From: Escherichia coli O157:H7 | GTDB lineage: Bacteria; Pseudomonadota; Gammaproteobacteria; Enterobacterales; Enterobacteriaceae | DNA: 64,000 nucleotides | Assembly (NCBI RefSeq): GCF_013167455.1 | Contig: NZ_CP038328.1 | Reading direction: 5' to 3' (one strand) | Shown here: in pieces, positions 42,101 through 45,100 of the stretch | Position numbering within the stretch: position 1 is the stretch's first letter | Layout: the number at the start of each line of letters is the position of its first letter | Position numbers: made by a program

Positions 42101-45100
42101 AATTGCGTTAACGGCTTGCTGGCCATCAACATCAGGCTGATAGCGATAACCACGGCGGCCATCATGACCAGTAAATGGTCGACCATCCCGACGGCGGTAA
42201 TCACTGAGTCGAGTGAGAAGATGGCGTCCAGTACCACAATTTGTGTCACCACCCCCCAGAACTTCGCACCTTTGCGTTGTGTGGGATTATTGCTGTCTTT
42301 CCCTTCCAGCCGTTCGTTCAGCTCCATCGTGGCTTTGAACAACAGGAAGAAACCACCAAACAGCATGATTAAGTCGCGGGCGCTAAAGGTAAACGAGCGG
42401 AAGCTGAACAGCGGTTGAGTCAGGGTGACCAGCCAGGAGATTGACGCCAGCAGTAACAGGCGCATTAACATCGCCAGCAACAGCCCGGTAACCCGTGCGC
42501 GGTCGCGCTGCTTCGGCGGTAGTTTTTCGGCGAGGATGGCAATAAAGACCAGGTTATCAATGCCGAGGACCAGTTCGATCACAATCAGCGTGATTAACCC
42601 GGCCCAGATAGACGGATCGGCAATCCATTCCATAGTAAGTACAAAACCTATTCGTTGTATGACAAATGTCACAATTCGATCATGGATAAATCGGGGCAAA
42701 AATGCAATGTTGCAGCACTATTTATCTCATATTATTTGAGGGTAATAACCTCACATTATCCCTGAATTAAAAGTGGTAATAATAAAACATTATTTAAGAA
42801 ATATCGCATGTGGAGACGCAATATTAAATATTGTCAACCTAAAGAAACTCCTAAAAACCATATTGAATGACACTTAATATAATTCTTAAAAATAGCCAAT
42901 TGCCGAATTGTTACCTTGCCTGCTATTCCGTTAGCTGTAACACTTCCTCCTGCATTATTGGAGAGCCAATATTCAATTACCATAATGTCACCTTATATTC
43001 GGAAGTTAATTTCCGCAATAACCCTTTCTCATCAACGATTGTATGCAGAGAGGGTTTGAAAAATTAAGCTAAATCAGTGTATTGGTAGCTAAAAAGCCAG
43101 GGGCGGTAGCGTGTCTGGATGCCTGAAAGACCAGTCTGAATTATTCTGTCAATAGCCTGCGGATGAAATCAATTTTTTTAGGACTGATGCCAGTTAAATT
43201 TTTATTCAATTAACTGCAAGGTAAATGTGCATGGCGACATTGCTATTAATAGTGCACAGGATAATTACTCTGCCAAAGTGATAAATAAACAATGATGAAA
43301 TCCAAAATGAAATTGATGCCATTATTGGTGTCAGTAACCTTGATAAGCGGTTGCACAGTACTTCCGGGCAGCAATATGTCGACGATGGGCAAAGACGTCA
43401 TCAAACAGCAGGACGCTGATTTCGATCTCGACAAAATGGTGAATGTTTATCCGCTGACCCCGCGCCTGATTGACCAATTACGCCCACGCCCGAATGTAGC
43501 GCGCCCCAATATGACGCTGGAAAGTGAGATCGCGAATTACCAGTATCGCGTCGGGCCGGGGGACGTTCTTAATGTCACCGTCTGGGATCACCCGGAACTC
43601 ACCACGCCAGCCGGTCAGTACCGCAGCTCCAGCGACACCGGCAACTGGGTACAGCCTGACGGCACTATGTTTTACCCGTATATCGGCAAGGTTCACGTAG
43701 TCGGGAAAACGCTCGCTGAAATCCGCAGTGATATTACCGGGCGCTTAGCGACGTACATCGCTGACCCGCAGGTGGACGTTAATATCGCCGCCTTCCGCTC
43801 ACAAAAGGCCTATATCTCAGGTCAGGTGAATAAATCTGGTCAACAGGCGATCACCAACGTACCACTGACCATTCTCGACGCCATCAACGCCGCAGGTGGC
43901 CTGACCGACACCGCTGACTGGCGCAACGTGGTGCTAACACACAATGGTCGTGAAGAGCGAATTTCTTTGCAGGCGCTGATGCAAAACGGCGACCTCAATC
44001 AGAACCGACTGCTTTACCCCGGCGATATTCTCTACGTGCCGCGTAATGATGATCTGAAAGTGTTTGTGATGGGTGAAGTGAAGAAACAGAGCACCCTGAA
44101 AATGGACTTTAGCGGCATGACCCTGACCGAAGCCCTGGGCAATGCTGAAGGCATCGACATGACCACCTCCAACGCCAGCGGCATCTTTGTCATTCGTCCG
44201 CTGAAAGGCGAGGGCGGGCGTAACGGCAAAATTGCCAATATCTACCAGCTGGATATGTCCGATGCCACGTCGCTGGTGATGGCGACAGAATTCCGCCTGC
44301 AACCTTATGACGTGGTGTATGTCACCACCGCCCCGGTTTCCCGCTGGAACCGTCTGATCAATCAGTTGCTGCCAACTATTAGCGGTGTCCGTTACATGAC
44401 GGATACAGCCAGCGACATTCATAACTGGTAATCGTCATGTTTAACAACATCTTAGTTGTCTGTGTCGGCAATATTTGCCGTTCCCCGACGGCGGAACGCT
44501 TACTGCAACGTTATCACCCGGAGCTGAAAGTGGAGTCCGCTGGACTCGGCGCGCTGGTCGGTAAGGGCGCTGATCCTACCGCTATCAGCGTCGCCGCAGA
44601 ACATCAACTGTCTCTGGAAGGCCACTGTGCACGACAAATCAGCCGCCGCCTGTGTCGCAACTATGACCTGATTTTGACCATGGAAAAGCGCCATATCGAA
44701 CGCTTATGCGAGATGGCACCGGAGATGCGCGGCAAAGTGATGCTGTTTGGTCACTGGGATAACGAATGTGAAATCCCCGATCCGTATCGCAAAAGCCGGG
44801 AAACGTTTGCAGCGGTGTACACATTACTTGAACGGTCTGCCCGCCAGTGGGCGCAGGCATTGAACGCAGAGCAGGTATAAGAATGACAGAAAAAGTAAAA
44901 CAACATGCCGCTCCGGTAACGGGCAGTGATGAAATCGATATTGGTCGCCTGGTCGGCACCGTCATTGAAGCGCGCTGGTGGGTGATTGGCATCACCGCTG
45001 TATTCGCCCTTTGTGCCGTGGTTTACACCTTCTTCGCCACGCCGATTTATAGTGCCGACGCACTGGTACAAATCGAGCAAAGCAGCGGCAATTCGTTAGT

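Follow-up and report, generated by a model that had tools for sequence, protein, structure and literature searches.

Genetic context of the wza upstream region

The window analysed here is a 64,000-nucleotide stretch of DNA from Escherichia coli O157:H7. Positions 42500..43500 match the E. coli O157:H7 chromosome between yegH, which lies on the minus strand, and wza with 100% identity, and 4839 of the 5426 complete E. coli genomes carry the yegH–wza region. As annotated in the identical O157:H7 record, the two main features are:

42634..43291, no strand assigned: yegH–wza divergent intergenic region, 658 bp
43292..44431, + strand: wza, first gene of the colanic acid (wca/cps) operon; ORF of 379 aa, annotated as Wza in the identical record

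Downstream of wza, ~20 co-directional ORFs extend over >20 kb and run past position 63406. Together with wza, they constitute the colanic acid capsule (wca/cps) operon. The G+C content of the intergenic region is 34.8%, compared with 52.2% for the whole window. The original prediction had described 42700..43291 as an AT-rich wza leader. The base composition agrees with that description, but the leader itself covers just ~42951..43291, and the segment 42700..42950 is promoter and upstream activator DNA rather than leader.

The same locus has been studied in K-12 as the cps/wza promoter region (Stout 1996, Stevenson et al. 1996), where it is colinear and the intergenic region likewise measures 658 bp. 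Comparison with K-12 MG1655 revealed 11 substitutions and no indels in the intergenic region, and none of the substitutions falls inside the three RcsAB-like boxes (A–C), the promoter hexamers, the JUMPstart element or the leader blocks described below. Given the equal length and the absence of substitutions from these elements, results published for K-12 apply base for base to our sequence. Window positions convert to K-12 coordinates as 2137243 + (43292 - window position). The surroundings differ in one respect: the O157:H7 background carries a toxin–antitoxin pair between asmA and yegH, which K-12 lacks.

Two short reading frames overlapping the intergenic region were discarded. A 49-aa ‘hypothetical protein’ called by PGAP on the minus strand (42834..42983) is intact in only 1 of 74 other species and is spurious, and a 66-aa ORF on the + strand (42867..43067) crosses an unconserved stretch.

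Phylogenetic footprint

A search for Wza with one genome per species yielded 80 Enterobacteriaceae loci, one of which came without upstream DNA. The footprint alignment, spanning ops-470 to ops+200 relative to the ops element, contained 75 sequences. It features conserved blocks that are sharply set apart by unconserved spacers. In addition to the JUMPstart element and three leader blocks downstream of ops, the conserved blocks are:

42832..42837: TGTCAA
42840..42856: TAAAGAAACTCCTAAAA
42873..42892: CTTAATATAATTCTTAAAAA
42915..42922: CTTGCCTG
42932..42944: TAGCTGtAACAcT

The stretch from 42955 to 43070 is essentially unconserved, with 0–40% identity, the lowest of the intergenic region.

A conserved putative extended -10 promoter

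The block CTTGCCTG followed by TAGCTGnAACAnT can be read as a -35 element, a 17-bp spacer and an extended -10 element, which leads to the following assignments:

42916..42921, + strand: putative -35 hexamer TTGCCT, within CTTGCCTG, which is at least 95% conserved across genera
42936..42944, + strand: putative extended -10 element TG-t-AACACT, 17 bp after the -35 hexamer; TG-c-AACAAT in most species
42936..42937 and 42939..42944, + strand: TG and hexamer AACACT, the two parts of the extended -10 element
42951 (±3 nt), + strand: predicted transcription start, from the conserved promoter geometry

Across genera, no variation occurs in the TTG of the -35 hexamer or in the TG and hexamer positions 2 (A) and 6 (T) of the extended -10 element; variation is seen at the n position and at position 5 of the hexamer. 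The arrangement TTGCCT-17-TG-n-AACACT shows what is expected of a σ70 extended -10 promoter, namely a spacing of 16–18 bp, A2 and T6. We infer that it is the conserved σ70 promoter of wza. A start at ~42951 would generate a leader of ~341 nt and place ops at ~+152. The start has reportedly been mapped, by Stout in 1996, roughly 340 nt upstream of wza.

In a simple σ70 consensus scan of 42500..43500, the conserved promoter fell below the threshold, and a different, non-conserved site was returned: TGGAGA-16-CATAAT (42959..42986). Transcription in E. coli might instead begin from this site, at ~42993, in which case box C would lie at ~-110 and serve as the main RcsAB operator, and ops would lie at ~+110. 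We consider this unlikely. Although TGGAGA-16-CATAAT was the sole site returned by the scan, this single match compares with 3.7 expected in shuffled sequences and therefore represents no enrichment. The site falls in the unconserved stretch 42955..43070, its TGGAGA hexamer carries a substitution in K-12, and the TTGCCT-17-TG-n-AACACT arrangement upstream of it is invariant across genera. TGGAGA-16-CATAAT was dropped as the main promoter because its region is unconserved; it is probably a chance match. The original prediction would have been overturned by an ops 12-mer lying upstream of the transcription start and hence outside the RNA. With the starts deduced here, ops lies within the transcript from either candidate promoter.

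RcsAB-like boxes upstream of the promoter

Activation of wza/cps by RcsAB through an RcsAB box is established in the literature. The consensus, TaAGaatatTCctA, comprises 14 bp, the right half of which is assigned to RcsB (PMC3950696; box from Wehland & Bernhard 2000). Three candidate boxes and one adjoining motif were located upstream of the conserved promoter, with distances given relative to the predicted start:

42795..42808, + strand: box A, candidate RcsAB-like, TAAGAAATATCGCA; 9/14 consensus positions, including 6/6 capitalised positions; centre ~-150
42832..42839, + strand: TGTCAAYA motif directly upstream of box B; TGTCAA at least 95% identical in 72 non-Escherichia species
42840..42853, + strand: box B, candidate RcsAB-like, TAAAGAAACTCCTA; 10/14 consensus positions; centre ~-104
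42875..42888, no strand assigned: box C, candidate pseudo-palindromic RcsAB-like, TAATATAATTCTTA; 10/14 consensus positions in both orientations; centre ~-69

The original prediction had pointed to two 14-mers resembling the RcsAB box, near 42792 and 42890. Both exist, a few bases away from those positions: they correspond to box A and box C, which match the consensus at 9/14 and 10/14 positions, respectively. Box C reads TAAGAATTATATTA on the minus strand (10/14), and its + strand reading also reaches 10/14. Boxes A–C headed a consensus scan of the intergenic region, which returned three matches of at least 10/14, compared with 1.7 in shuffled sequences, and 29% of the shuffles reached three. 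Judged by consensus score alone, boxes A–C are at chance level in AT-rich DNA. The caution with which the two 14-mers had originally been treated was thus justified, since consensus matches are no better here than in shuffled AT-rich DNA, and we based our assessment of the boxes on conservation instead.

In 72 species outside Escherichia, most positions of boxes B and C are at least 95% conserved. Box C retains 24 of 28 bits across species and is the best position of the upstream alignment, with a mean consensus match of 10.0/14. Box B ranks second (mean 9.5/14); its right half, TCCTA(AAA), is invariant, and in several genera its sequence, TGAGGATAATCCTA or TGAAGAAATTCCTA, comes nearer to the RcsAB consensus. 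The next best upstream position after these two has a mean of 7.9/14. Box A reads TAGGAAATATCGCA in most species, with 60–90% conservation per column. In all three boxes, the TC..A (RcsB-type) half faces the promoter. Conservation therefore strongly supports box C, and moderately supports box A, as RcsAB-like elements. This amends the original list of boxes, in which the nearly invariant box C and the moderately conserved box A were present and the likewise nearly invariant box B was missing. The published wza RcsAB box is reportedly located near -100, and would then presumably be box B, the nearest of the three.

Like the RcsAB box described by Wehland & Bernhard (2000), the boxes found here are 14 bp long and located upstream of the promoter, which their conserved TC..A half faces. 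They differ from it in that each matches at only 9–10 of 14 positions, and in that two or three conserved boxes are present rather than one.

Boxes A, B and C might alternatively bind another factor, such as H-NS, IHF-type nucleoid proteins or another regulator, with RcsAB binding elsewhere. This would be in line with the chance-level consensus matches, with the left (RcsA-type) half of box B, which differs between genera, and with the invariant TGTCAA adjoining box B, for which RcsAB binding offers no explanation. We nevertheless regard it as improbable: boxes B and C are far ahead of all other positions in the whole upstream alignment as cross-species matches to the RcsAB consensus, box B comes nearer to that consensus in the genera named above, the TC..A half has the same orientation in all three boxes, and RcsAB control of the wza promoter is established. 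We therefore favor RcsAB as the factor recognizing these boxes.

The JUMPstart and ops elements

The part of the intergenic region predicted to be transcribed contains two nested elements:

43075..43113, + strand: JUMPstart element (Rfam RF01707); cmscan 57.3 bits, E 1e-11
43102..43113, + strand (non-template): ops element GGCGGTAGCGTG, 190 nt before the wza ATG (-190)

The exact 12-mer GGCGGTAGCGTG occurs once in the window, on the + strand and at the position upstream of wza where it had originally been reported; by chance, 0.01 exact copies would be expected per shuffled window, and a single shuffle out of 100 contained one. It contains the ops core GGCGGTAG inside the 12-mer pattern GGCGGTAGnnTG. 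The bare 8-mer core GGCGGTAG is present in five copies in the window, and the other four lie outside the yegH–wza intergenic region. One of these extra copies, at 42515, is located inside the yegH gene.

The proposed relationship to JUMPstart sequences was borne out by the covariance model: the match covers model positions 1–38 of 38, its score of 57.3 bits compares with a gathering score of 35, and it is the sole Rfam match at E<=1 in 41000..45000. The ops 12-mer forms the 3′ end of this full-length match. The JUMPstart hairpin, UUGGU/GCCAG, has 99.5% of cells paired. The strand of ops is that of wza and of the ~20 ORFs that follow it, and ops lies ~150 nt downstream of the conserved promoter, as counted from the predicted start.

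In the species survey, 75 of the 80 loci have GGCGGTAGC at a distance of ~190 nt upstream of wza. One Citrobacter locus has GACGGTAGCGTG at ops. Three related species, Pseudescherichia vulneris, ‘Escherichia sp. ESNIH1’ and UBA7338, have no JUMPstart and retain the remaining region, including the boxes, the promoter and the operon. The presence of these other elements without JUMPstart indicates that ops is dispensable in some lineages.

Published data from strain CFT073 bear directly on the element. The CFT073 ops catalogue (Hustmyer et al. 2022, PMC9765446) places GGCGGTAGCGTG at -190 relative to wza, within the non-template leader strand, and the ops geometry at wza is identical in our window and in CFT073. 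RfaH ChIP signal was reported on the wza ops 12-mer in a CFT073 Δhns ΔstpA strain. Wild-type CFT073 growing in rich medium keeps the wza locus silent and free of RfaH signal, with H-NS–StpA silencing acting at initiation, and wza–wcaM was termed a ‘cryptic RfaH-regulated locus’ (PMC9765446). A requirement for RfaH downstream of wzc is stated in the literature (see also Navasa et al.).

The element closely resembles the JUMPstart/ops elements of other RfaH-dependent operons (rfb/wzx, waaQ, hly, kps and tra), with which it shares the upstream hairpin, the location on the non-template strand and the placement in a 5′ leader. Its 12-mer is the same as that of the wzx and rfaQ ops elements of CFT073. 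At wza, 190 nt separate ops from the first gene, a longer distance than the 71 nt of wzx and the 40 nt of kps. Group 1 capsule (K30/Klebsiella) cps loci likewise feature JUMPstart upstream of a wza–wzb–wzc block and need RfaH past wzc. In those loci, however, JUMPstart is located after galF and before wzi, whereas here it lies in the yegH–wza region and wza is the first gene. A further difference from other RfaH operons is that the colanic acid operon is silent without Rcs induction or removal of H-NS, such that RfaH acts only after a separate initiation signal.

That the 12-mer is vestigial or a chance occurrence with no role in colanic acid expression, the operon depending on NusG and translation coupling alone, is very improbable: the three species that keep the locus without JUMPstart, the deviating Citrobacter locus and the silence of the locus, with no RfaH signal, in wild-type CFT073 in rich medium (PMC9765446) could be read that way, but they stand against a full 38-position JUMPstart match (E 1e-11), a position fixed in 75/80 species, an RfaH ChIP peak once initiation is derepressed (PMC9765446) and the RfaH requirement downstream of wzc given in the literature. 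The JUMPstart match, the location on the non-template strand, the conservation across 75/80 species and the published RfaH ChIP all agree with the original reading of the element as an ops within JUMPstart that acts through RfaH.

Conserved leader blocks downstream of ops

Between ops and the wza start codon, the footprint contains three further blocks:

43140..43160, + strand: leader block 1 (TTATTCTGTCAATAGCC...), 84% identity
43176..43200, + strand: leader block 2 (TTTTTAGGACTGATGCCAGTTAAAT), 90% identity; retained in species without JUMPstart
43255..43291, + strand: leader block 3, the wza translation-initiation region, 93% identity; without a strong Shine–Dalgarno sequence

For comparison, identity is 92% and 96% at wza codon positions 1 and 2, 57% at codon position 3, and 53–56% in the spacers between the blocks. 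The leader blocks thus equal codon positions 1 and 2 in conservation and far exceed codon position 3. The leader blocks persist in the three species without JUMPstart. An invariant copy of TGTCAAYA lies at 43147, and its twin is the motif at 42832 upstream of box B.

We found no compensatory pairs in the leader using RNAalifold, and folding of the single leader sequence gave z = -0.77, which supports no structured RNA. A hairpin at 43191..43216 was considered as a leader structure; it is 80% paired with few double changes and was set aside as weakly supported. The Rfam search at E<=1 of 41000..45000 returned no family for the leader blocks. Leader peptides starting at ATG 43188 or ATG 43163 were both rejected: the inner ATG has a G that varies in 19 of 76 species (25%) between invariant neighbors, and the longer frame is broken by indels of 1–2 nt in a T-run.

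The leader blocks are the sole part of the region that we did not assign to described biology. Tentatively, the three blocks may together make up a new cis-regulatory module in the leader of the colanic acid operon, a reading to which we assign less than even odds. Such a module could serve as a binding site for a protein or an sRNA, or as an initiation region poor in Shine–Dalgarno sequence and tuned to ribosome loading, and both TGTCAAYA copies (42832 and 43147) might be part of it.

A model for control of the colanic acid operon

We conclude, with a probability of roughly 90%, that the region controls the colanic acid operon through a σ70 promoter, RcsAB-type boxes and a transcribed JUMPstart/ops element that loads RfaH. 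Both the precise position of the start and the choice of box or boxes bound by RcsAB are deduced from conservation and geometry. The control region upstream of wza is already known and well studied.

Initiation would take place at a weak σ70 promoter, with the -35 hexamer at 42916..42921, the extended -10 element at 42936..42944 and the start at ~42951. This promoter would normally be silent, embedded in AT-rich, H-NS-bound DNA. Activation would require binding of RcsB~P and RcsA to the upstream RcsAB-type boxes, with B and C the best-supported candidates and A a possible third. About 150 nt into the leader of ~341 nt, RNA polymerase would transcribe JUMPstart, and ops, whose non-template strand is exposed in the paused complex, would recruit RfaH. 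The RfaH-modified polymerase would then resist Rho- and H-NS-dependent termination and polarity, allowing it to read through the >20 kb operon, including the wzc–wcaA spacer.

Our analysis is in agreement with textbook biology, in which colanic acid production needs Rcs for initiation and, as a second and separate input, RfaH for elongation through an operon that is long and silenced by H-NS. Its value lies in an exact coordinate map of the boxes, the promoter, the predicted start, the JUMPstart/ops element and the leader blocks.

The wzc–wcaA spacer (47046..47137) contains a REP-like, G+C-rich hairpin. It is plausible that this hairpin represents a candidate polarity point within the operon.

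Loss and change of the ops element in relatives

In the Enterobacteriaceae wza comparison, the JUMPstart/ops segment has been lost in its entirety from Pseudescherichia vulneris and two of its relatives, leaving a gap of about 75 nt. All three keep the candidate RcsAB-like boxes B and C, the promoter and the leader blocks downstream of ops. In Citrobacter sp. On2M (locus L005, around 2312), ops is mutated to GACGGTAGCGTG.

Loci without JUMPstart/ops (P. vulneris and its two relatives; coordinates of each locus)
L039, 2085..2482
L036, 2085..2482
L035, 2085..2482

Within the window, the 8-mer core of ops, GGCGGTAG, occurs five times versus 1.5 expected. 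None of the four further copies (0/4) extends to the 12-mer ops within one mismatch.

Further copies of the ops core 8-mer
10228
13677 (-)
23780 (-)
42515, inside the yegH gene

Downstream in the operon, the wzc-wcaA spacer contains a G+C-rich, REP-like hairpin (GCCGGATAAGGCGCTCACGCCGCATCCGGC) at 47046..47137, which may represent a polarity point that is overridden by RfaH.

Repeats in the wza upstream region and leader

The motif TGTCAAYA is present twice, with a spacing of 315 bp.

Copies of TGTCAAYA
42832..42839, abutting box B, upstream of the promoter
43147..43154, inside leader block 1

In both copies the TGTCAA portion hardly varies between genera. Its reverse complement is TTGACA, but on the minus strand this is not followed by a matching -10 element.

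The leader also holds a small inverted repeat, CAGTTAA-N12-TTAACTG (43191..43216), with conserved arms and a variable loop. The arms pair in 80% of cells, with a few double changes, and this weakly supports either a hairpin in the RNA or a binding site of palindromic form.

An annotated reading frame over the wza promoter

RefSeq/PGAP annotates a 49-aa 'hypothetical protein' on the minus strand at 42834..42983 in many E. coli genomes. This reading frame shares its DNA with the wza activator boxes and promoter. Only one of 74 other species has it intact, so it almost certainly does not represent a real gene.

The yegH side and the asmA-yegH interval

At the other end of the intergenic region, conserved blocks (42668..42730) adjoin the start codon of yegH, an ATG at 42633 on the minus strand. 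Read by eye on the minus strand, they contain TTGCAT-17-CATGAT, a candidate that could serve as the yegH promoter. Between asmA and yegH, the O157:H7 sequence carries genes for an HTH antitoxin-like protein and a RelE/ParE-family toxin (40357..40975, minus strand), whereas K-12 has a 273-bp spacer alone at this position.
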